64,000 nt of DNA. Source: an uncultured Anaerolineales bacterium. GTDB lineage: Bacteria; Chloroflexota; Anaerolineae; B4-G1. Positions 8,533 to 56,151 of the stretch are shown in pieces (position 1 is the stretch's first letter; each line of letters opens with the position of its first letter). The stretch covers positions 510-64,509 of the forward strand of contig CAZKDJ010000003.1 in NCBI GenBank assembly GCA_964551295.1, written 5' to 3'. The translations under genes were made by a program, and so were the position numbers. Below the pieces are notes generated by a model, which saw nothing but the letters and a program-made list of their open reading frames with translations, had not been told where the DNA came from and did no database searches.

Positions 8533-8704
8533 TAGGTCAAGCAGGAGGTCGATCATTTTATCCCAAATCGATTTGGGATAATTTGGGATAAGTGGCATCA
8601 GGATCTGATTAGCACCGGGATTTTGGGATGGCGGGTGCTTCAGGAGGCAACAAAAGAGGCCCAGTTGAGCAACTGGGCCTCTGAGACACGCCGTTGGCCG
8701 CTGG

Positions 8705-9376: not shown

Positions 9377-10183
9377 TTAACTTTCCAATGGCTGGCAGGT
9401 TGGGCAGATGTAGCTGCTCGTGCTGCCGGTCTTGATCTTTTCCACGGTTGTGCCACAGGCCGGGCATGGCTTCCCTTCCCGATAGGCAACCAGGAAGAAG
9501 CTTTCGTCCCATTTACCTTTTTCGTCGTGCAGGTTGCGTTCCCACGCGCTGCCGCCCTGATCGATGCTTTCCTGCAGCGTCTCCTGGAGCGCTTCCCACA
9601 ACCGAGCTGTCTGCTCGTCACTCAACGTGTTGATCGACCGCAGCGGATGGATTCCCGCTTTGAACAGCGGATCTTGGACGTACACGTTGCCAATGCCAGC
9701 GACGCGCTTCTGATTGAGCAGGAACGTCTTGACCGCGCCACGCCGCCCGCGCAACAGGGCTCGGAACTCGTCCAACGTCAAGTCGAGTGCATTGGGACCC
9801 AGCTGGCTCGTCATCTTGTGCGCGGCCAAATCGGCGGCGTAATGCGCGTAGCCGAACCACCAGAAGTTAATCGCCAGACAGGCGCCATCCGCTAGGTCAA
9901 AGATCAGTCGATACTTTTCCGGTAGATTGCCCCGGTCGGTCAGTAGAATCTCGCCGCCCATCCCCAGGCCGAGCAGCAGCCACCCCTGAGTCGTCTCGAC
10001 CTGCAGCCACTTGCCCCGGGGGATGACGGCGCGAACCTCGGCGCCGGTAAGTGCGGCCTGGAACTCGGCCAGCGGCACGTTCAGACATTTGGGCTGCAGC
10101 ACTTCGATGGCGCTGATCGTCCTGCCGACCAGTTCCTTCTGCATGTCGCGGGCAAAGATCGTGATTTCAGGCAGTTCTGGCAT
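9377..10183 (-). CDS. mutM: formamidopyrimidine-DNA glycosylase (Fpg/MutM)
   Basis: Begins MPELPEITIF (Pro2/Glu3 catalytic N-terminus), with a C-terminal zinc finger CPACGTTVEKIKTGSTSSYICPTCQ. The ORF-track start at 10312 is rejected; the true ATG is 10183. Confidence 0.9.
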   Translation of the reverse strand: MPELPEITIFARDMQKELVGRTISAIEVLQPKCLNVPLAEFQAALTGAEVRAVIPRGKWLQVETTQGWLLLGLGMGGEILLTDRGNLPEKYRLIFDLADGACLAINFWWFGYAHYAADLAAHKMTSQLGPNALDLTLDEFRALLRGRRGAVKTFLLNQKRVAGIGNVYVQDPLFKAGIHPLRSINTLSDEQTARLWEALQETLQESIDQGGSAWERNLHDEKGKWDESFFLVAYREGKPCPACGTTVEKIKTGSTSSYICPTCQPLES

Positions 10184-10214
10184 AGTTTTTTCGTTGGTTG
10201 ACCGAGATGACTCT

Positions 10215-10243
10215 ATTATACAAGAACAAATGTTCTGCGTCAA
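10215..10243 (-). promoter_or_regulatory. SOS promoter of the fpg-lexA operon: TTGACG-17-TATAAT with the LexA box GAACATTTGTTC filling the spacer
   Basis: Minus-strand reading: cTTGACGcagaacatttgttcttgTATAATagagtc...ATG(fpg). The box occupies plus-strand coordinates 10224-10235 (AGAACAAATGTTCT on the plus strand). Confidence 0.75.
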
Positions 10244-10322
10244 GGCCCAAAAAGCGCGTTTGGCACGGCGCGCAGGGTGTGCTAGAATAAGTGGGGGGGG
10301 TGTCCTTTCCAAGGAGGGGGAT

Positions 10323-13300
10323 TTGAAGCGCTGTCCCGAGTGTGGATTTCCTTATCCAGAGGACGAGCCGCGTTGCTACGTCTGCGGCGCTGACCTTACG
10401 CATCTTGAAGACGCGCCGGTTGCCGCGGAGGATGCTCAAGTTCGGCGTGATTTGGCCGCTGCCCAGGAAGCTGTGCGCCACCTACGTCGGTATGTTCCCC
10501 CTGTCGTCGCCGAGGGGATCCTGCAGGATCAGGAACGGCTGCGTGATGAGCGTCGCGAGATAACTGTCTTATTTGCCGATACGGTCAACTTTTCTAGGCT
10601 TGCGGCGTCGCTGGACGCCGAGTCGGTCTTTAATTTGATCAACGACCTGCTGAGCCGTTTGATGGCCTGCGTCCACCGGTACGATGGCACGGTGGACAAG
10701 TTTACCGGCGACGGCCTGATGGCCGTGTTCGGGGCCCCCATTGCCCACGAGAACGACATGGAGTTGGCCGTTCGTGCTGCGCTGGATATGCAGCGATCGG
10801 CGGCCGAGTTCGAGCCTGTCGCCCGCGCCCAACTGGGCGCTCCCCTACGGATTCGCATCGGCATCCACTGTGGGCTGGTCGTCGCCGGCATCCTCGGCAC
10901 CGAGGAGCAGGCGGCCTACACCGTCATCGGAGAGACGGTTAACCTGGCGGCACGGCTGGAGTCGTTGGCTCGCCCCGGCAGCGTCCTGGTTAGCTCCCGC
11001 GTCTACCAGCAGACGCAGGGGCTGTTCAACTTCCAGGCGATGGGCATGACCCAGATCAAGGGGGTCGCCGAGCCGATGGCTGTCTACGAAGCGATAGGCA
11101 CTCGCTCCGAGCCATTGCCGACGCGTGGGGTGGTAGGTGTCACGGCCATTCTCTTGGGACGCGACGCCGAGTTGGAGCAATTGTATACCTTGACGACGGA
11201 TTTTTTAGATGCTCGCCAAGGCCGCTTGGTGACGATCCGAGGGGAGGCCGGGCTGGGCAAGTCGCGGCTGGTCTCTGAATGGCTCTCGACGATCCCTTCC
11301 GATAGGGTTGTGATCTGGCAGGGACGTGGGTTGCCCTACGCGCAGGGAGTTGGGTATGGCATCTTTCGTTCTCTGCTGCGGGATGTGAGCTTGAGCTATC
11401 CTCCGGAGGCCGAATGGGACGCCCACGTGTCGCCTGAATTGAGGCCCTTCTTGCGGCAGCTGGTGGAGGGATTTGATCCGGGCGAGAGAGCCACTTCGCA
11501 TCGCTTGGAGCCGGAACGCGTCAAACAGTTGACGGTGCTGGCTTTGCGTGAATGGGTGTTGGGTGAGGCGCACCGGCAACCGGTGATGTTGGTTCTCGAG
11601 GATTTCCATTGGGTAGACGATCTCTCGCGCGATGCGTTGCAGTCGCTGATCAGCGTTATCCACGAAGCCCCCGTGCTGGTGTGTGTCACGGCCCGGCCTC
11701 AACCGGAGAGACCTTTTTCTCTCACGGTTTCGCCGTTGGAAGAGCATCCGAAGGCGCCCGCGCACCTGCCCCTGGAATTAAACCCCCTCTCGCCGGAGGA
11801 CAGCCGGGCGCTGCTTGAGCACCTGGTCGATTTGAGTGACATGCCTGAACGTCTCGTCAACACCATCCTCACCCGCGCCGAGGGCAATCCGTTTTACATT
11901 GAAGAGTTTGTGCGCATGTTGATCGAGAAGGGTGTGTTGAGTCTAGGGGATGGCCAGTGGCAAGTATCCTCGACTGTGGAGTGGCAGACGCTGGAAGTTT
12001 CCGCCACTTTGCGCGGGTTGATGATGGCGCGTGTCGATCGCTTGCCGGAGAGCCTGCGGCAGGCTCTCCGGGATGCGGCGGTCATTGGCGTGCAGTTTGA
12101 CGCCCGTTTGCTGGGAGAGGTCGAGCGTCGCCTCCACGGCACTGGCAGCGTGGTACCGTTCTTGGAACGGCTCGCGGCGTTGGGGATGTTGGTGGAGCGG
12201 CCCCAGGCCGGTGAGCGGGTGTATGCATTTCGTCATCTCCTGACGCAGGAGACGATCTATAACAGCCTGCTGCGTAGCCAGCGTCCCACGTTGCATCGAA
12301 CGGTGGCTGAGTGCATCGAGTATCTTTACGCCGAGGACTTGCGCAATCACGCCGAGGTGCTGGCGCTGCATTACGACCGCGCGTTTGTGCGTACCAAGGC
12401 GATGCGCTATGCGCTGCTGGCGGGCGAGCGCGCCTGCGAGCGTTTCGCCAATCGTGAGGCTATCGAATACTACAGCCGGGCGTTGCAAATATCGCAGCAC
12501 TTGGGCGGCTATGGCGCCGAGCGGTGGCAGGCGGCTATCGGGCTGGGCGAGGTGCTCCAGCACGTCGGCGAGTACGATGAGGCGATCGCCTGTTATCAGG
12601 CCGCGCTGGAGGAATGGTCCGATGCCCCGCCCCAGTCCCGTGCCTGGGCGATGCTTCGATTGGGGCAGGTGTGGGATAGGCAAGGCGAACTGGAGGAGGC
12701 CGAGGGCTGGCTGAGACAAGCATTGGCTCAGCTTAGCCAGGCCAGCATCAAGCTCCCCGAGTTGCGAGCCCAGATTTACTCGGAGTTGGGTTGGCTGAGC
12801 CTGCGCCGGGGCAACATGGCCTCTGCGCGCGATTGGCTGGGACAGGGACTTGACCTGGTTGGTACTATGGGGCACTATGAAGTATTGTCGTCCATCTTTG
12901 ATCGTCTGGGGGCCGTGCACTATCAGTGCAGCGAGTGGAAGCAGGCATCCGAGTGTGTCGAACGCGCTCTGCAGCATCGTAGCCGGCTGGGCGATATCGT
13001 CGGCTACGCCGGCTCACTCAACGGCCTGGCCCGCATCAAATGGGCCAGCGGCGACTGGGATGGCGCGCTGGCCGATTACGAGCGCGCGGTCGCGATATAC
13101 GAGCGCATCGGTGAGGTAGAGGGGCTGGCGCAGGCCTATACCAATTTGGGGGTGCTGTATACTGACCGGGGCCAGTGGGACAAGGCGGAGGAGAACCTAG
13201 AGAAAAGCTTCGATATCGCCCAACGGATTGCCTATCCATATGATCTGGCGCGGGCTCATATGAACCTGGGGAAACTCTACATGATGCAGGAGCGGTGGGA

Positions 13301-13796
13301 TGAGTGCGGCCAGCACCTGAATGCTGCTATTCCCCTGTACATGGAAATCGGCGGACGCGCCGAGATAGATCTGAGCGAGGCCTATTGTCTGCGGAGCACC
13401 CTGCATCTGGAGCAGGGCCAGACCGAAGAAGCCTGGCAGTGGGCCGATCGCTGTAGTGATTTGCTGCGCCTGGCGACCGGGGCCCACGAGGGCGACTTGC
13501 TCGAATGGGGGCGGTACGAGCGGCTGATGGGACGTATCTCCTTGCTGGGGGGCGACTTGTCGACCGCTGATCGTCACTTGAGGCGCAGTGACGTCATCTT
13601 TCAGGGCCGAGGGGCCAAGTTGGAGACTGGCCGGACAGCTTACTGGAGCGGTCTGCTGTCGTTGGCCCAGCACGAGCCGGAGAAGGCCTCCCAAGAATTG
13701 AACAAGGCCCAGCAGATATTTGAGCAACTAGGGGCAGTTGCCGACCTGAAGCGTGCGGAGCAGCAGTTGGCGCAGATTGGTCTTTCCCAAAGCTAA
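10323..13796 (+). CDS. signal-transduction protein: N-terminal zinc ribbon, class III adenylate/guanylate cyclase domain, AAA/STAND ATPase and TPR repeats
   Basis: CPECGFPYPEDEPRCYVCG zinc ribbon; cyclase core (VLFADTVNFSRL...FTGDGLMAVFGAP); P-loop GEAGLGKS; a long TPR array. Start inferred at TTG 10323, 5 nt after AAGGAGG; the ORF-track start at 10011 overlaps the fpg promoter and is rejected. Confidence 0.8.
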   Translation: MKRCPECGFPYPEDEPRCYVCGADLTHLEDAPVAAEDAQVRRDLAAAQEAVRHLRRYVPPVVAEGILQDQERLRDERREITVLFADTVNFSRLAASLDAESVFNLINDLLSRLMACVHRYDGTVDKFTGDGLMAVFGAPIAHENDMELAVRAALDMQRSAAEFEPVARAQLGAPLRIRIGIHCGLVVAGILGTEEQAAYTVIGETVNLAARLESLARPGSVLVSSRVYQQTQGLFNFQAMGMTQIKGVAEPMAVYEAIGTRSEPLPTRGVVGVTAILLGRDAELEQLYTLTTDFLDARQGRLVTIRGEAGLGKSRLVSEWLSTIPSDRVVIWQGRGLPYAQGVGYGIFRSLLRDVSLSYPPEAEWDAHVSPELRPFLRQLVEGFDPGERATSHRLEPERVKQLTVLALREWVLGEAHRQPVMLVLEDFHWVDDLSRDALQSLISVIHEAPVLVCVTARPQPERPFSLTVSPLEEHPKAPAHLPLELNPLSPEDSRALLEHLVDLSDMPERLVNTILTRAEGNPFYIEEFVRMLIEKGVLSLGDGQWQVSSTVEWQTLEVSATLRGLMMARVDRLPESLRQALRDAAVIGVQFDARLLGEVERRLHGTGSVVPFLERLAALGMLVERPQAGERVYAFRHLLTQETIYNSLLRSQRPTLHRTVAECIEYLYAEDLRNHAEVLALHYDRAFVRTKAMRYALLAGERACERFANREAIEYYSRALQISQHLGGYGAERWQAAIGLGEVLQHVGEYDEAIACYQAALEEWSDAPPQSRAWAMLRLGQVWDRQGELEEAEGWLRQALAQLSQASIKLPELRAQIYSELGWLSLRRGNMASARDWLGQGLDLVGTMGHYEVLSSIFDRLGAVHYQCSEWKQASECVERALQHRSRLGDIVGYAGSLNGLARIKWASGDWDGALADYERAVAIYERIGEVEGLAQAYTNLGVLYTDRGQWDKAEENLEKSFDIAQRIAYPYDLARAHMNLGKLYMMQERWDECGQHLNAAIPLYMEIGGRAEIDLSEAYCLRSTLHLEQGQTEEAWQWADRCSDLLRLATGAHEGDLLEWGRYERLMGRISLLGGDLSTADRHLRRSDVIFQGRGAKLETGRTAYWSGLLSLAQHEPEKASQELNKAQQIFEQLGAVADLKRAEQQLAQIGLSQS

Positions 13797-32200: not shown

Positions 32201-32272
32201 CGCGTCGCTTCGCGGAACCCCGGGCCGCTCGGCGGCGTCTATAGGGCAGTACAGATTCGCAGGAGGTGTCCC

Positions 32273-32944
32273 GTGTCCCCTACCAGGCGAGAGTTCATCA
32301 AGCGTGTGGGTATTGCCCTGGGTTCGCTGATGGCGGCCCGTTGTGCCTGCGTTACCTTGATCGAAGGCGGCAGTGGCCTGGGCGGCACGCCCCGCGAACG
32401 ACTGCGCAGGAGCTGGCAGCGTTTTGGCTGGCTGGAGGAACAGGCCAGCGACTGGAGCGACTATGAGAAAGGGGCTCGGGCGCTCGAACAGCTCAGAGCC
32501 GAGCATCGCGCTGCCCTCGACGAGTTGGTGGCCGCCGGCGAACTGGAGGCGGACGTGGCTGACTATGTGCAGGTCGCCTTTGACGAGGCGGCCTTTCACG
32601 TCTGGCGGGCCAACTGTGGCATGACGTGCTACGAGGCCGTGGCGAGGCCGGAATATACGCCGTATGCCAGCGGCCAACTGGTGCAGCAGGCCGAACTCCT
32701 GGCCGGCCTGGCCGACGACGCCACGGTCGATCGGGAGACGGTGGCGCGGGCCCAGGCCGCCGTCGAGCGGGATGTCGCGTTCCTAGGCCTTTTTGACGAG
32801 GAAGAACAGGCGCTGTACGACGCGTTGATCGAGGCCGCCGGCGACAGCTACGATTATCCTCCTTTGGATGAGGTCGATCTGGAGATCACCTCCGGGGCAA
32901 CCGAGGCGGCGCGGTTTTTGGTGGAGCTTTTGTTGGAAGAGTAA
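32273..32944 (+). CDS. Tat-signal acidic hypothetical protein (223 aa, 4 Cys)
   Basis: Twin-arginine motif TRREFIKRVGIALGSLMAA. Acidic and Ala/Glu-rich. Only a 3-nt gap to the radical-SAM gene. Confidence 0.6.
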   Translation: MSPTRREFIKRVGIALGSLMAARCACVTLIEGGSGLGGTPRERLRRSWQRFGWLEEQASDWSDYEKGARALEQLRAEHRAALDELVAAGELEADVADYVQVAFDEAAFHVWRANCGMTCYEAVARPEYTPYASGQLVQQAELLAGLADDATVDRETVARAQAAVERDVAFLGLFDEEEQALYDALIEAAGDSYDYPPLDEVDLEITSGATEAARFLVELLLEE

Positions 32945-32946
32945 GA

Positions 32947-34149
32947 GTGACCAGCTCCCGTCCTCGCCTGCAAACCCTCATCTTTGAAGTCACCCAGCGC
33001 TGCAACCACGCCTGCCTACACTGCTACAACGTGTGGCACGGGCCGGAGCGGCTGGGGAATGGCGATTCTGCGGCCCAGTCGCGCGAGGCTGAAGGCCTCG
33101 CGCTGAAAGGGCAAAGCCCTAGCGGGCTGTCAATAACAAGGCCCAAGCCTGCTGCAGCAGGCTTGGATTCCATCGCCGGGCGAAGCGGCGACCACGCCAA
33201 CGTCTACCCCCGTGGCGAACTCGACACCGCCCAAACTCTGGCCCTACTGAGCAAGGCACTCGATGAGGTCGACTGCAACCACGTCACCCTCACCGGCGGC
33301 GAGCCGCTGCTCCGCGAGGACCTGGGCCAGATCCTCGACCTGCTGCGCGAACGCGGCGTGCGCGTTACCCTGATCAGCAACGGGCGCTTGCTCGATGAGC
33401 CTACCGTGGTCGAGCTGCTCGATCAGGGGGTGGGGCTGTTTGAGCTGCCACTGTTGGGCCGCCGCCGCGAGGTGCACGACCGCCTCTCTGGCGCTCCCGG
33501 CGCTTTCGACGCCACCTTGGCGGCGATGGCCCACATCCGCACTCACTGGGGGCGGTTCGTGGCCGTTTTCGTCGCCACGCGGCTGAACCTGGACGACCTG
33601 TACGAGACGATCAAGCTGGCCTTTGCCTTTGGCTCGCGGGGGATGATGCTCAACCGCTTCAACCCCGGCGGGCGCGGGCAGGCGCACCTCAGGGAGCTAT
33701 TGCCCTCGGCCGACGAGATGAACGCAGCGCTAGAGATCGCCAACGCGGCCTCGGAGGAGTTCGACTTTCCCATCTCCTGCTCCATCGCCATGCCGCCCTG
33801 TCTGACCAATCACCGCAAATACCCCAATCTCAACTTTGGCTTCTGTGCCGCCGGCACTGAGCGCGCCTACTACACCCTCGATCCCCTAGGCAAAGTGCGC
33901 CCCTGCAACCACACGCCCACGGTGCTGGGCAATCTGCTGGAGGAGCCTTTCACCGATATCATTGCTCCCGAGCGGCTGGCCCCCTTTGTCGAGGCCGTGC
34001 CAGCGTTCTGTGAGCCCTGCGTTTTACGCGATACCTGCCAGGGTGGGTGCAAGGCCGCCGCCGAGGTCTGTTATGGCTCGCTGACTGCGGAGGAGCCGTT
34101 TCTGCATTGTAACCTTGCCCAGGCCAAGCCGTTGGCTCGGTGGGATTAG
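32947..34149 (+). CDS. radical SAM / SPASM-domain enzyme (protein or peptide-modifying maturase family)
   Basis: CNHACLHC cluster motif; a C-terminal Cys-rich SPASM region (CAAGTERAY...CNH...CEPCVLRDTCQGGC); an unusual approximately 60-aa low-complexity insert after the cluster loop. Confidence 0.8.
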   Translation: MTSSRPRLQTLIFEVTQRCNHACLHCYNVWHGPERLGNGDSAAQSREAEGLALKGQSPSGLSITRPKPAAAGLDSIAGRSGDHANVYPRGELDTAQTLALLSKALDEVDCNHVTLTGGEPLLREDLGQILDLLRERGVRVTLISNGRLLDEPTVVELLDQGVGLFELPLLGRRREVHDRLSGAPGAFDATLAAMAHIRTHWGRFVAVFVATRLNLDDLYETIKLAFAFGSRGMMLNRFNPGGRGQAHLRELLPSADEMNAALEIANAASEEFDFPISCSIAMPPCLTNHRKYPNLNFGFCAAGTERAYYTLDPLGKVRPCNHTPTVLGNLLEEPFTDIIAPERLAPFVEAVPAFCEPCVLRDTCQGGCKAAAEVCYGSLTAEEPFLHCNLAQAKPLARWD

Positions 34150-35121
34150 GTCGCGTTCAGGGCGTGCAGGTCAGCCTGCGGGGGCGGGCGAAACCAACCC
34201 GAGTCATGTTGCTGGTGGCATCCACGGCGGTATGCGCTTGGCGAGGCCCCGGTGTGTTTCCGAAACGTCCGCCTGAAATGAGAATCGTCGTTGAAGCCAA
34301 CACGCTGTCGAACCTCGGTGATGGGCAGCCCCGTGTCTCGCAGCATCGCGGCGGCCAAATTGACGCGGAGCTGGATCAGGTAGGCGATGACGGGCATGCC
34401 GGTGACCTTGTGGAACCGCTCTGACAACGTGGTGCGGTTGGTGTGAAATTCCCTGGTCAGCTTGGCAATCGTGATCTTTTCCTGATAATGCGTGTGCAAG
34501 TACAAGATGATGGGATCGACCTCGTCGTCAGGAGCGCGCAGGGAGATGGAAGGGACGTTTTTGCTCGACCATATCGGGCGTATACTGGAAGCGGCTCAAT
34601 AACAGCAGTAATTCCAGCAGATAAGACACGCTGCGGCACGACCAGTGCACGTCTTCCTGCTGGGTGATCTGGTGACTGATGGCGTTGAGCAGCGACGATA
34701 TGCGCAGGTGGACGGCGGGGCCGATGCTGAGATATCCATCATACGCTGTGTCCCGTCTCAGGAACGGTCGCAGCCAGTACAGGTCCCGCTGCCTCATGGG
34801 CGGAAGGCTCTTGATAGCGCAGCGGATGTTCTCGAAGGTGAAATTGTGGTTGGCCAGGTGGGGGTGAAAGTAGAGGGATTGGGCTTGTAGCTCCATGCTC
34901 TGCTCCAGCACGGGATGCTCCCTTTCATTCAGACAAAAGATTGCGGGAGCAATAAAGGATTTGCGGCGCTCGGAGAAGCGCAAAATGCCGGTTCCCCGCT
35001 CGATCAGCACCAGGCGGAAACGGGGGCATGTGTTGAGATCGGGGTCAAAACCCTCGTGGGGATTGTGCCAGATGGGCACGCTGTAAACCGGTTTCCACTT
35101 GCTGATTGCGCTTAATTCCAT
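34146..35121 (-). pseudogene. AraC-family transcriptional regulator, frameshifted: ligand-binding domain 35121-34528, HTH domain 34505-34146
   Basis: Two adjacent ORFs in different frames encode an AraC N-terminal cupin-like domain and the C-terminal AraC HTH (IAKLTREFHTNRTTLSERFHKVTGMP...GFNDDSHFRRTFRKHTGASPSAY). Confidence 0.55.
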
Positions 35122-35271
35122 CTACCCCTCCCACCTTGAGATGGCGGCCCATCAGCACAAAAACGCCATAGGCCTCGGTCAACGTCCGAGGCCTATTATA
35201 TGCGCCGTCCGCAGAAGATCAAGGAGGCGGAAGATACACAAAAACAGCGCGATGGAAAACAACGCGATTGG

Positions 35272-35754
35272 CTATTGTGATAGTGATTGGTGAATCTCGT
35301 CCAACGTGGCCTGGGCCTGGTCGGCTGCCTGTGCGTAACTGCCCCCTCGCCAACTGGCAAACATATCTGTCAGTTTGTCACAGGCGTATTCCTCACAGTA
35401 AGCGCAGTTGGCGATTCCCCGTTCCACGTTGCAGTTGCGGACAGCGCAGTTCATAGCGCCCTGGCGCAACGTGCCATCTTTTGTCAAGCAGCCATCACAC
35501 GTCCTCCCATAGTGCGGACATTCCGGGCAGGCATCGTATCCACAGTAAGCGATGTAGGCGGCCATTGTCTCCTCCTCCGTTGGTGCAGCGGTCGGCATTG
35601 TGGTAGGTGGTGCGTCTGTCGGCGTGGGCGTTGCTTGCTGGCCGGAAGAGCACGCAGCCAGCAGACCCGCTGCCGCCATCGTGAGGAACTCACGCCGGCA
35701 GATTTGGCGCGAGCGCGTACAAGATTTGTGACATCTGATCTGGTCTTTTTTCAT
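35272..35754 (-). CDS. Tat/lipoprotein-signal Cys-rich protein (DUF3795-like C-terminal domain)
   Basis: GAGGAGAGG RBS; N-terminus KSCTRSRQICRREFLTMAAAGLLAACSS; C-terminal CPECPHYGRTCDGC...CAVRNC...CAYCEEYAC. Confidence 0.6.
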   Translation of the reverse strand: MKKDQIRCHKSCTRSRQICRREFLTMAAAGLLAACSSGQQATPTPTDAPPTTMPTAAPTEEETMAAYIAYCGYDACPECPHYGRTCDGCLTKDGTLRQGAMNCAVRNCNVERGIANCAYCEEYACDKLTDMFASWRGGSYAQAADQAQATLDEIHQSLSQ

Positions 35755-35835
35755 CGTTTCCTCTCCTCATTGCATTATTGGTAGAATGTATTAAGGATTT
35801 GCTGGCCGCCCGACTTTTTCGACCAGCGAATCCAA

Positions 35836-37035
35836 CTAGGCCACCATATCTGGATTCTCTGGCAGCGGCTTGGGTGACTTGGCCGCCTGGGTGATAAAAG
35901 ATTCGACGAGCGCGGCGATCTGTCTCGGCCCTCCCCTGGCCTCGCTGGTACTGACCACGACCATGTCCAAATCCGGCATCACGTAACATTGAGACGCAGG
36001 CGATTGAGCGGCATAAGCACCAAAACTGTGAATCCACCATTGGTAGCCAAAACCCAGACCACACATGGTTTTTGTGTATCTCTCATACGATGCGGTTACC
36101 CATTTCTCAGGAACGACCTGTTGTTCGTCCCAGATGCCGCTGTTCGAATACAAGAGCCCAAACTTGGCCAGATCTCGTGGCGTCAATTGAAGTGCCGTAG
36201 ACCCAGGGATGTCAGCAGAATCGGATTCCCAAACCACGTCAGAGATACCAAGTGGTCCAAAAAGATGCTCCTGGGCAAAAGACAAGATGTCTGTCCCCGT
36301 GGTTGCCTGTAGAATGGCGACTAGAAACTGCGGGTCTGGGCGAGCCCAGTGGAAAGTGCTTCCTGGATTCCCCATCAAGCGGGCATCGAGTGCCCGCTGA
36401 ATCCAGTCTGTGCTACCATCCCGTGTCCTCCCCAGGCCAGAAGTATTCGTCAAAAGATGCGCCAGCGTTATCGTGTCTTTGCTCGGGTCGCCATCGGCGG
36501 GGGTTTGTTCAGGGAAAAGGTCCAGAAGGCGCTGATCCACACCAGAGACGTAGCCTTCCTCGATGGCGATGCCCATCAGCGCGGAAGTAATGCTTCTGGT
36601 CGCGCAACCGAGCCGCCACTTGGTGTTTCTCTCAGCCGGATGAAAATGCGCCTCCAGCACGATGTAATTGTTGCGGGTGACCAGGAGGCTTTGGATGCCA
36701 GGAAACATTTGGTTCTGTTCCAAGACAAACTCGAGCATGCGCACCAGCAACTCGGAATCCACCCCTTGTTCCTCTGGGGTGGAGATCCGCCATTCATCGG
36801 TGGGCCAGTACGCCGATGGCGTAGGCTGAGGTGTAACTGTCGGTTCACTGGTCGGCGTAGGGGACGGTTGTAAGCGTGAGCGACATCCCACCAACATGCT
36901 CGCCGCTAATGCCATCTTGAGGAAATCACGCCGGCAGATTTTCGCCGCACAAGGTGTATCGCAGCAGTTATTTTCCTGTCCGCAGGCTTCTTCTCCCGGG
37001 CACGAGTTAATACATCCATCGTATGCTTCTGGCAT
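35836..37035 (-). CDS. beta-lactamase-fold serine-hydrolase family protein with a Cys-rich Tat-type signal. The SxxK catalytic motif is not evident, so it may be non-catalytic.
   Basis: AGGAG RBS 6 nt upstream of ATG 37035. N-terminus MPEAYDGCINSCPGEEACGQENNCCDTPCAAKICRRDFLKMALAASMLVGC; the remainder is class-C beta-lactamase / esterase-like. Confidence 0.7.
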   Translation of the reverse strand: MPEAYDGCINSCPGEEACGQENNCCDTPCAAKICRRDFLKMALAASMLVGCRSRLQPSPTPTSEPTVTPQPTPSAYWPTDEWRISTPEEQGVDSELLVRMLEFVLEQNQMFPGIQSLLVTRNNYIVLEAHFHPAERNTKWRLGCATRSITSALMGIAIEEGYVSGVDQRLLDLFPEQTPADGDPSKDTITLAHLLTNTSGLGRTRDGSTDWIQRALDARLMGNPGSTFHWARPDPQFLVAILQATTGTDILSFAQEHLFGPLGISDVVWESDSADIPGSTALQLTPRDLAKFGLLYSNSGIWDEQQVVPEKWVTASYERYTKTMCGLGFGYQWWIHSFGAYAAQSPASQCYVMPDLDMVVVSTSEARGGPRQIAALVESFITQAAKSPKPLPENPDMVA

Positions 37036-37060
37036 AGGTTTCTCCTTTCGATTACAAAGG

Positions 37061-37315
37061 TTATCTCGGTATGGAACGTCTACTCCACCAACGCCTCGGC
37101 GATGAGCCAGCCGAATCGCCGGGAGGTGTCTGTCCCAGATATTCACCCGTCAACACAACTTGGGTCGCTGCGCCCGGCGCGGTAGTAGGGAATGCTGTAG
37201 CCAATGACTCGGCAAGGGTTGGTGAAACAGTGGCGGGTGACGGCGTTGCCGTAGGGGCACACCCGGCGATCGAGAGCATCAGTGTTAGCAAAGCAAGTGT
37301 GTTCAAAGGTTTCAT
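37061..37315 (-). CDS. small putative lipoprotein (84 aa)
   Basis: Lipoprotein signal MKPLNTLALLTLMLSIAGC. Lower codon third-position GC than neighbours, so this is uncertain. Confidence 0.4.
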   Translation of the reverse strand: MKPLNTLALLTLMLSIAGCAPTATPSPATVSPTLAESLATAFPTTAPGAATQVVLTGEYLGQTPPGDSAGSSPRRWWSRRSIPR

Positions 37316-37503: not shown

Positions 37504-38295
37504 ATGGCAGACGAAGGTTCACTCTCCCTGACGTACACGGGTTACTACGACGACGAGTGCCGTTCGGTGCGCGGCGTCGTGCCGGTCGAAGAAGAGATCG
37601 CACTGCACGTCAACGGCCGGCCGCTCGTGCGCCTGATGTGCACGCCGGTCCTGTTGGAGGAGCTGGCGCTGGGATTCCTGTTCAGCGAAGGGCTGATCGA
37701 AGGGATGAGCGACGTAGAGGAAGTGAAGATACTGGCGCTGCGCGATGGTCGGCGCTGGCTCGACGTGTGGCTGGGCTACGAGATCGAGCCGCCCAAGCTG
37801 CGCGCCATCACCTCCGGCTGCTCCGGCGGCACGACCTTTGAGAGCGCGGGCAGCCCGGTCGAGTCCGACCTGCGCGTCACGCCGCAGCAGGTGACGCACC
37901 TGGTAGCGGAGATGTCGCGTCGCGCCGAGCTTTACCACCGGGCAGGCGGTCTCCACGTGGCGGCGCTTGCGGAAGGGGATGGCCTGATTTGTGTGGCGGA
38001 GGACATCGGTCGCCACAACGCCGTCGACAAGGTGGCAGGCCACTGCCTGCGGCAGGGCCTGCCAATGGCGGATCGCGTGCTGCTCTCCAGCGGGCGTATC
38101 AGCTCCGAGGTGGTGAACAAAACTGCGCGGATGCAGGTGCCCGTCCTCATCTCCCGCACCTCCCCGACCTCCCTCGCCGTCCAACTGGCGCGGGCATGGC
38201 ACGTCACGCTGATCGGCTACACGCGGCGGCTCAGCTTTCGCGTCTACACCGACGAGTGGCGGCTCCTTGCGCCCGAGTGTTTCCCTGGGGATTAG
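37504..38295 (+). CDS. fdhD: formate dehydrogenase accessory sulfurtransferase FdhD
   Basis: EDIGRHNAVDK motif and the FdhD fold. The ORF-track extension from 37282 is rejected. Confidence 0.85.
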   Translation: MADEGSLSLTYTGYYDDECRSVRGVVPVEEEIALHVNGRPLVRLMCTPVLLEELALGFLFSEGLIEGMSDVEEVKILALRDGRRWLDVWLGYEIEPPKLRAITSGCSGGTTFESAGSPVESDLRVTPQQVTHLVAEMSRRAELYHRAGGLHVAALAEGDGLICVAEDIGRHNAVDKVAGHCLRQGLPMADRVLLSSGRISSEVVNKTARMQVPVLISRTSPTSLAVQLARAWHVTLIGYTRRLSFRVYTDEWRLLAPECFPGD

Positions 38296-48224: not shown

Positions 48225-48352
48225 CGTATGCCCGCGCAGTTTCGGACGCTGTCCGAAACTGCCAATAGATTCGAGCGAAGCTCGAATCTATCTTGACTTT
48301 TGCACTGCCTGCGGTAAGATATGCCGCGAACGGGTTTTTAGGAGATATCCCT

Positions 48353-56069: not shown

Positions 56070-56151
56070 TGCGACTTCTTTGGGCCGACGAAACACGAAC
56101 GCCACCGATCGCACGATCGGTGGCGTTCGCTTGTTGTACTGAGGGGGCAGC

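Follow-up and report, generated by a model that had tools for sequence, protein, structure and literature searches.

In a 64,000-nt stretch of DNA from an uncultured Anaerolineales bacterium (contig CAZKDJ010000003.1, positions 510 to 64,509; hereafter the window), we analyzed two adjacent genes. The first encodes a protein predicted to be exported by the twin-arginine translocation (Tat) pathway, here called the partner, and the second encodes a radical S-adenosylmethionine (rSAM) enzyme with a SPASM domain. The pair probably represents a new protein-maturation system, in which an rSAM/SPASM protein maturase would act on a new substrate family carrying a new motif, T-C-Y-x-P. Taken as a whole, the model of a two-gene maturase-substrate module restricted to Chloroflexota has in our judgment a slightly better than even chance of being right, and any specific chemistry is less assured than that. 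No description of this combination of an rSAM enzyme with a Tat-exported partner was found in the literature.

The linkage of the two genes was surveyed using one genome per GTDB species, which gave 37 loci, 36 of them with downstream DNA. In all 36, one to three tandem partner paralogues preceded the rSAM gene on the same strand, and in 34 the rSAM gene followed the partner gene(s) directly. This arrangement held down to 34% identity for the partner and 52% for the enzyme. The exceptions (L016 and L017) displayed a gap of 1.3-1.5 kb before the rSAM gene, which in L016 contained a further truncated paralogue. When the look-up was anchored on the rSAM gene, a partner homologue was located immediately upstream in five out of five cases. 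The initial annotation of this DNA, made from the sequence alone, had suggested that a maturase is paired here with its cognate exported protein, and the co-occurrence strongly supports this pairing: the partner is conserved beside the enzyme, and by hidden Markov model (HMM) comparison the enzyme is not an anaerobic sulfatase-maturating enzyme (anSME). All-versus-all clustering of the flanking open reading frames (ORFs) revealed no other gene family in more than seven loci; apparent exceptions were the partner and rSAM genes themselves and shadow ORFs of the latter. In particular, no protease, exporter, or protein with a RiPP recognition element (RRE; RiPP, ribosomally produced and post-translationally modified peptide) was conserved near the pair in this clustering. 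Since no other neighboring family is widely kept, the conserved unit is [partner]1-3 plus rSAM.

Thirty-six of the 37 loci belonged to metagenome-assembled genomes of Chloroflexota. The lone exception, L029 (JBFZEF010000348.1, labeled Halioglobus sp.), is a contig of 2.6 kb; its genes are organized as in L027, a Chloroflexota contig obtained in the same study, and it is therefore probably mis-binned. Three tandem and divergent partner paralogues ahead of a single rSAM gene were observed in L003 (7303-9470), L019 (5311-7530), L024 (5316-7340), and L032 (6001-8414).

In the window, the partner gene (32273-32944, plus strand) encodes 223 aa and the rSAM gene (32947-34149, plus strand) 400 aa; for both ORFs, the coordinates originally given were exact. 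GTG serves as the start codon of both genes. A Shine-Dalgarno sequence AGGAGG (32261-32266, plus strand), read from the sequence, is located 6 nt upstream of the GTG at 32273. At the gene junction (TAA-GA-GTG, 32942-32949, plus strand), also read from the sequence, the partner stop codon TAA (32942-32944) is separated by the dinucleotide GA from the rSAM start at 32947. This 2-nt spacer is consistent with translational coupling of the two genes. The coupling is suggested by tight or overlapping junctions: in relatives, the genes overlap or abut (e.g. L005, L006, L014, L031, L035, L040, L049, and L050), and overlaps of 1-4 nt were frequent in the rSAM-anchored look-ups. In a close relative (L004, 8876-9501), a gene pair for a ParE toxin and a helix-turn-helix (HTH) antitoxin sits between partner and rSAM, so the tight junction can be broken with neither gene being lost.

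The partner starts with MSPTRREFIKRVGIALGSLMAARCAC and is acidic, with an isoelectric point of 4.35 and 43 Asp and Glu versus 20 Lys and Arg residues. Its four cysteines occupy positions 24, 26, 115, and 119; the first description of an acidic Tat-signal protein of 223 aa with four Cys was thus accurate. The protein is predicted to be all-helical and belongs to an unnamed Chloroflexota family. It matched no Pfam or NCBIfam model, and the best match of a profile search against PDB sequences was insignificant (E=0.54). An AlphaFold2 (AF2) model was all-alpha and of low confidence (predicted local distance difference test, pLDDT, of 61), with residues 40-115 being best defined; a Foldseek search of this model against the PDB returned nothing better than E=0.2, and no fold was assigned. 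A large protein collection contained 356 homologues, all unnamed or annotated as 'hypothetical', those with a taxonomic label being assigned to Anaerolineae or Chloroflexi. An exhaustive profile search yielded 415 representative clusters of relatives at 50% identity, 125 of them at E<1e-30. Some relatives are fusions of two domains behind one Tat signal (P0241, P0246, P0283, and P0276).

Export by the Tat pathway is predicted from the first 24 aa (MSPTRREFIKRVGIALGSLMAARC; 32273-32344, plus strand). The N-terminus S-P-T-R-R-E-F-I-K, followed by VGIALGSLMAA, corresponds to the (S/T)-R-R-x-F-L-K pattern with a moderately hydrophobic h-region. T4, R5, R6, and F8 were invariant or nearly so in the partner alignment, and RRxF/L was found in 162 of 172 members, the others being truncated; the motif is universal in the family. 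The signal peptide ends in xxRC in 144 of these 162 members, with a near-invariant Cys preceded by Arg at position -1. In the window protein, this Arg-Cys (aa 23-24; 32339-32344) stands directly behind the h-region. Tested against the lipobox pattern [LVI][ASTVI][GAS]-C, only about 17 members have G, S, or A at position -1 of the signal-end Cys. This Arg-Cys could represent a lipobox of an unusual kind, determine cleavage, or contain a Cys with some other function. Neighboring Tat proteins encoded in the window carry the canonical lipoboxes LLAAC and MLVGC.

The partner's invariant core is a short loop motif, M-T-C-Y-E-A in the window protein (aa 117-122; 32621-32638, plus strand), which we propose as the modification site. 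T118-C119-Y120 were invariant in the partner alignment, and TCY occurred in 160 of the 172 members. The motif is part of a conserved stretch (H109…N114…T118-C119-Y120…Y128), and His78 is invariant as well. Across the family, the core reads [I/M]-T-C-Y-x-P; the window peptide around TCY spans ANCGMTCYEAVARPEYTPY. In the AF2 model, TCY forms a loop between helices (pLDDT <50). Of 167 unique members, 51 carry one or two further copies of the cassette, Φ-T-C-Y-x-P-Φ…P-T/S, in the Pro/Thr-rich linker that comes directly after the signal peptide; most of the divergent species are among them. In the window partner, this linker copy has been lost. Being invariant in a loop and duplicated within disordered linkers, TCY behaves like a recognition or modification site, and it is chiefly for this reason that we propose Cys119, together with Tyr120, as the target. 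Such behavior is more in keeping with a motif that an enzyme recognizes or modifies than with a structural element. In the second domains of some two-domain relatives, TCS or ACS replaces TCY. The four cysteines that were singled out initially do not form a conserved set: conservation is lacking for C26 and C115, C24 is kept as part of the Arg-Cys at the signal end, and C119 is the invariant Cys of TCY.

High conservation was also found for the amphipathic helix at the C-terminus (aa 207-223, …SGATEAARFLVELLLEE; 32891-32941, plus strand). Within it (…AARFLVELLLEE), A212, A213, F215, and L216 were invariant and V217-L221 nearly so, and in two-domain members the helix recurs at the end of each domain. 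It could conceivably be recognized by the enzyme.

Membership of the enzyme in the rSAM superfamily is evident from its match to Pfam Radical_SAM (PF04055; E=1e-17, 65.3 bits versus a cut-off of 29.5) and from the CxxxCxxC cluster motif CNHACLHC (33001-33024, plus strand), whose cysteines (C19-x3-C23-x2-C26) were all invariant across 65 sequences. The C-terminal part reached the cut-off of the SPASM model (PF13186) with 23.6 versus 21.5 bits. SPASM domains have a motif of seven cysteines, CX9-15GX4C…CX2CX5CX3C…C, for two auxiliary [4Fe-4S] clusters. The set is complete in the window enzyme (33778-34071, plus strand; C300, C320, C355-x2-C358-x5-C364-x3-C368, and C375) and invariant in the 65 sequences, as are two extra cysteines upstream of it, C278 and C285. 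The spacing of 19 residues between C300 and C320 is slightly above the textbook value. The protein begins about 10 residues ahead of the first β-strand, and neither the alignment nor the AF2 model contains an RRE or PqqD-like domain.

No named subfamily was reached. The best NCBIfam similarities were AhbD, NirJ, NirJ2, and PqqE, all far below the cut-offs of these equivalog models (AhbD, 99.6 versus 500; PqqE, 85 versus 381; NirJ, 81 versus 515; MftC, 79 versus 265). With 80-100 bits against cut-offs of at least 500, the resemblance to AhbD, NirJ, and NirJ2 amounts to generic SPASM similarity. Among solved structures, a profile search ranked PqqE first over the full length (E=1e-12), and anSME matched in the SPASM region only (E=6e-5). 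The AF2 model of the enzyme was of high confidence (pLDDT 88.5, core >90), and Foldseek found SkfB (the top match), PqqE, SuiB, and anSME about equally alike. All these nearest solved relatives modify peptides or proteins. The enzyme is, by sequence, an unclassified three-cluster SPASM enzyme with a minimal anSME-like architecture. The HMM classification thus bore out the original call of an rSAM/SPASM enzyme and showed that it is not an anSME, but it did not supply a subfamily.

Gene structure, motifs, superfamily-level membership, strict co-occurrence, and conservation of the motif are established by the data. From the linkage and the motif conservation we infer that the partner is the substrate, as well as the residue modified and the chemistry, and we propose the following course of events. 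Partner and enzyme would be produced together, and the enzyme, with one SAM cluster and two auxiliary clusters, would act in the cytoplasm on the co-translated partner before its export. It would bind the partner directly, possibly via the conserved C-terminal helix. The Cys in the [I/M]-T-C-Y-x-P cassette, which is invariant and lies in a presumably exposed loop, would be the most likely target. After abstraction of a hydrogen atom at or beside this Cys, the auxiliary clusters would complete either a thioether or other cross-link, as in sactisynthases or QhpD, or an anSME-like oxidation to an aldehyde. The Tat system, a carrier of folded proteins, would then export the modified acidic, helical partner to the outside of the membrane, where the conserved Cys at the signal end possibly tethers it. 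More tentatively, the partner family could be a previously unrecognized class of Tat-exported (lipo)proteins of Chloroflexota, in which the dedicated rSAM/SPASM enzyme converts the TCY loop into a chemically new protein-derived modification. This might be an aldehyde, a quinone-like cofactor, or a cross-link derived from Cys and Tyr, and it would provide a center outside the cytoplasm that is catalytic, redox-active, or metal-binding. We consider this reading possible, though less likely than not.

Several observations weigh against the proposal that the enzyme modifies the TCY loop of the partner. Co-occurrence alone does not prove an enzyme-substrate relation. Besides Tyr, no acceptor residue is conserved beside the cassette Cys, and the type of cross-link is therefore a guess. 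Exposure of the loop is weakly supported because the partner model is poor (pLDDT 61) and found no fold match. Finally, the top NCBIfam matches AhbD and NirJ are tetrapyrrole-modifying enzymes, and a small-molecule substrate is possible. Following this last point, the enzyme might make or tailor a small-molecule cofactor, e.g. of the tetrapyrrole type, and the partner would be an apoprotein that is loaded in the cytoplasm and exported in folded form by the Tat pathway, with His78, His109, Cys119, and Tyr120 as ligands. AhbD, NirJ, and NirJ2 indeed act in heme pathways, Tat export is typical of cofactor-loaded proteins, two invariant His together with Cys-Tyr could serve as ligands, and in one clade a gene of the FdhD family, a cofactor chaperone/sulfurtransferase, lies behind the rSAM gene. 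However, the scores underlying the resemblance are the generic ones given above, FdhD is absent from most loci, and the surroundings contain no further conserved biosynthetic gene. A ligand site would also hardly account for the additional copies of the TCY cassette in disordered Pro/Thr-rich linkers. We regard a cofactor-making enzyme as the main rival, but an unlikely one.

Far less probable still, and already largely refuted, is an anSME-type or general maturase serving substrates encoded elsewhere, e.g. sulfatases, next to which the partner would be a mere syntenic neighbor. Such an enzyme would agree with the architecture (about 350 aa with rSAM and SPASM domains and without an RRE) and with anSME being among the structural matches. 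Yet anSME was not among the 25 best NCBIfam matches, its PDB profile match was confined to the SPASM region, and the partner, a 200-aa, all-helical, acidic protein, is no sulfatase and has no C/S-x-P/A-x-R motif. Moreover, the pair is kept with overlapping codons where all other neighbors differ, and strict adjacency of the genes is unlike many anSMEs. What the proposed partner maturase would share with the anSME/sulfatase system (enzymes of about 350-370 aa with rSAM and SPASM domains, no RRE, and a matching structure in Foldseek) is the action on a Cys that has a Pro close by in a short motif, here T-C-Y-x-P, of a full-size exported protein. In both, the modification must precede export, because the target protein is destined to leave the cytoplasm.

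Comparison with other known systems likewise revealed partial resemblance. In the QhpD/QhpC system, an rSAM/SPASM enzyme modifies Cys of an acidic, Cys-containing protein (the gamma subunit of quinohemoprotein amine dehydrogenase) that ends up outside the cytoplasm, as proposed here. However, the loci lack qhpA, B, E, F, and G genes or any other conserved neighbor, no QhpD model was among the best NCBIfam matches, and the partner has its own Tat signal and only one invariant Cys without a conserved Asp/Glu acceptor pattern. The initial annotation had drawn this analogy and suggested a QhpD-like thioether, which may be formed but gained no support from the comparisons. PqqE, which acts on a Tyr-containing motif of a ribosomal product (PqqA; a related pair is MftC with MftA), is the closest solved relative in sequence; it differs in its far higher model cut-off (85 of the 381 bits were reached), in its PqqD/RRE partner, and in its substrate, a peptide of 20-30 aa as opposed to an exported protein of 223 aa whose product is presumably a modified protein and not a released cofactor. 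The synthases of sactipeptides and ranthipeptides (SkfB, CteB, and PapB) perform SPASM/Twitch rSAM chemistry on Cys, with SkfB as the top structural match, and the repeated short target motif resembles the core repeats of RiPPs. The loci do not qualify as RiPP clusters, though: they lack a short precursor composed of leader and core, no RRE, protease, exporter, or transporter gene is conserved nearby, and the motif lies within a folded domain of a Tat-signal protein of 200-280 aa.

If conversion of TCY took place as proposed, it would constitute a new counterpart, at the scale of whole proteins, of anSME/sulfatase or QhpD/QhpC. To our knowledge, few rSAM/SPASM enzymes mature whole proteins as opposed to short peptides, with anSME and QhpD as the main examples. 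The present system offers a tightly coupled candidate enzyme-substrate pair with a defined motif (T-C-Y-x-P), about 400 sequence clusters, and no prior annotation. For enzymologists, it opens a tangible way toward a post-translational modification that may be new; for microbiologists, it is a clue to an abundant and so far uncharacterized protein on the cell surface of Anaerolineae and related Chloroflexota.

Genes around the pair were conserved only within the clade of the window, where the pair lies between a transketolase gene and an FdhD-family gene, the latter sometimes overlapping the rSAM stop codon. FdhD directly follows or overlaps rSAM in L001, L003, L004, L011, L014, L049, and L050 and is absent at about 30 other loci; at the more distant loci, neither gene flanks the pair. 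Both were considered as core components and rejected, as they flank the pair in only one clade. They appear to reflect clade synteny, with FdhD being at most a clade-specific accessory. In the window, the FdhD/NarQ-family gene (37504-38295, plus strand; Pfam match E=1.5e-68) is separated from rSAM by a 3.35-kb block of minus-strand genes. Since FdhD directly follows rSAM in relatives, this block looks like a lineage-specific insertion. It comprises (34146-37146, minus strand) an AraC-type regulator, a Cys-rich DUF3795 protein, and a protein with a beta-lactamase fold, the last two each with a Tat motif, a canonical lipobox, and a Pro/Thr-rich linker. Two ORFs on the minus strand, not in frame with each other, make up the AraC-type regulator: one (34146-34505, 119 aa) with the C-terminal HTH_18 domain and one (34528-35121, 197 aa) with the N-terminal part, for which no Pfam match was found. 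The same split was called in an independent assembly (L007), and the regulator may be either a frameshifted pseudogene or two separate genes. The regulator and rSAM genes are convergent, with an overlap of 4 nt between the 3′ end of the former and the stop codon of the latter.

A separate feature of the window enzyme is an in-frame insert of 141 nt (33064-33204, plus strand), which is hairpin-rich and encodes 47 residues (40-86) predicted to be disordered. The initial annotation had described an insert of about 60 aa right after the cluster motif; alignment with orthologues confirmed its presence, but placed it 13 residues past the last cluster Cys and shortened it to 47 aa. The loop between W30 and G90 comprises 59 aa in the window enzyme compared with 7-16 aa in 64 homologues. 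An identical insert was present in four independent assemblies from different sequencing runs, and an assembly error is therefore excluded. Orthologues do not have the insert; only the closest one (L004, 81% identity) carries a related version, which is shorter. There, 78 nt are inserted at the same site with both ends shared (…TTCTGCGGCCC / CATCGCCGGGCG…) and a different center, and a 9-bp inverted repeat of its own lies near the ends. An ancestral insertion was thus apparently remodeled by internal indels.

The reported perfect 22-bp palindrome (CAAGCCTGCTGCAGCAGGCTTG, 33144-33165) is real and extends to a perfect 24-mer (CCAAGCCTGCTGCAGCAGGCTTGG, 33143-33166), encoding P-K-P-A-A-A-G-L. In 100 shuffles, no match to the palindrome with up to three mismatches was obtained. 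The insert contains several perfect hairpins, including one with a 9-bp stem (GCGCGAGGC-TGAAG-GCCTCGCGC, 33081-33103, plus strand) besides the palindrome, and its RNA folds with a z-score of -3.7. An Rfam scan of the region and the whole window identified no RNA family at the insert. The insert peptide is of low complexity, with pLDDT <50 for residues 36-71 and >90 in the rest of the enzyme in the AF2 model. On the minus strand, the palindrome is followed by the T-rich CCTTGTTATT, resembling a terminator by consensus scan. A functional terminator was not adopted, given only a consensus match, on the antisense strand and inside a gene.

We conclude that the insert reflects the lineage-specific expansion of a surface loop that was variable to begin with, separate from the maturation question. 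Most likely, it arose by local hairpin-driven events (template switching or inverted duplication), and it would be tolerated because it is disordered. That the rSAM core tolerates a disordered expansion of 47 aa 13 residues past the cluster loop is of minor interest. Initially, a small mobile palindromic element captured in frame had been suggested as the possible origin of the insert; such an element could be of the Rickettsia palindromic element (RPE), miniature inverted-repeat transposable element (MITE), or repetitive extragenic palindromic (REP) type. The several perfect hairpins and the unusually strong fold, a length divisible by three, the restriction to a single lineage, and the inverted repeat near the ends of the L004 version would all suit such an element, as would the terminator-like combination of one palindrome arm with a T-rich flank, as captured intergenic DNA would have. 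RPEs, too, are hairpin-forming inserts of about 100-150 nt that lie in frame in a surface loop and leave the protein otherwise intact. They form multi-copy families, however, and no further copy of insert or palindrome was detected in the window (allowing three mismatches, and by short-word blastn) or in 455 kb of related loci. Likewise, the exact 22-mer occurred only once in JGI metagenome contigs, in L048. At 65%, the insert has the same GC content as the gene, and the loop at the insertion site already varies in length from 7 to 16 aa among orthologues. For the sequences covered, which did not include the complete genome, a mobile element is unsupported, and we judge it quite improbable.

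In the single match (L048, 1045-1078), the same 22-bp palindrome forms part of a longer hairpin (GAGGATTCAAGCCTGCTGCAGCAGGCTTGAATCCTC) in the intergenic region where genes of an unrelated organism with low GC content converge. The hairpin looks like a bidirectional terminator, and the match is taken to be coincidental, at a frequency close to chance; by our own rough estimate, about 0.03-0.3 chance matches are expected for perfect palindromes. Across the whole window, 19 perfect hairpins (stems of 9 bp or more, loops of up to 8 nt) were counted versus about three in Markov shuffles, and none of the 19 shares sequence with the insert. Examples are located at 8558-8581, 8655-8682, 48236-48291, and 56096-56129, as well as at 12045-12071 (CCGGAGAGCCTGCGGCAGGCTCTCCGG), the last within an ORF of 1261 aa (10011-13796).

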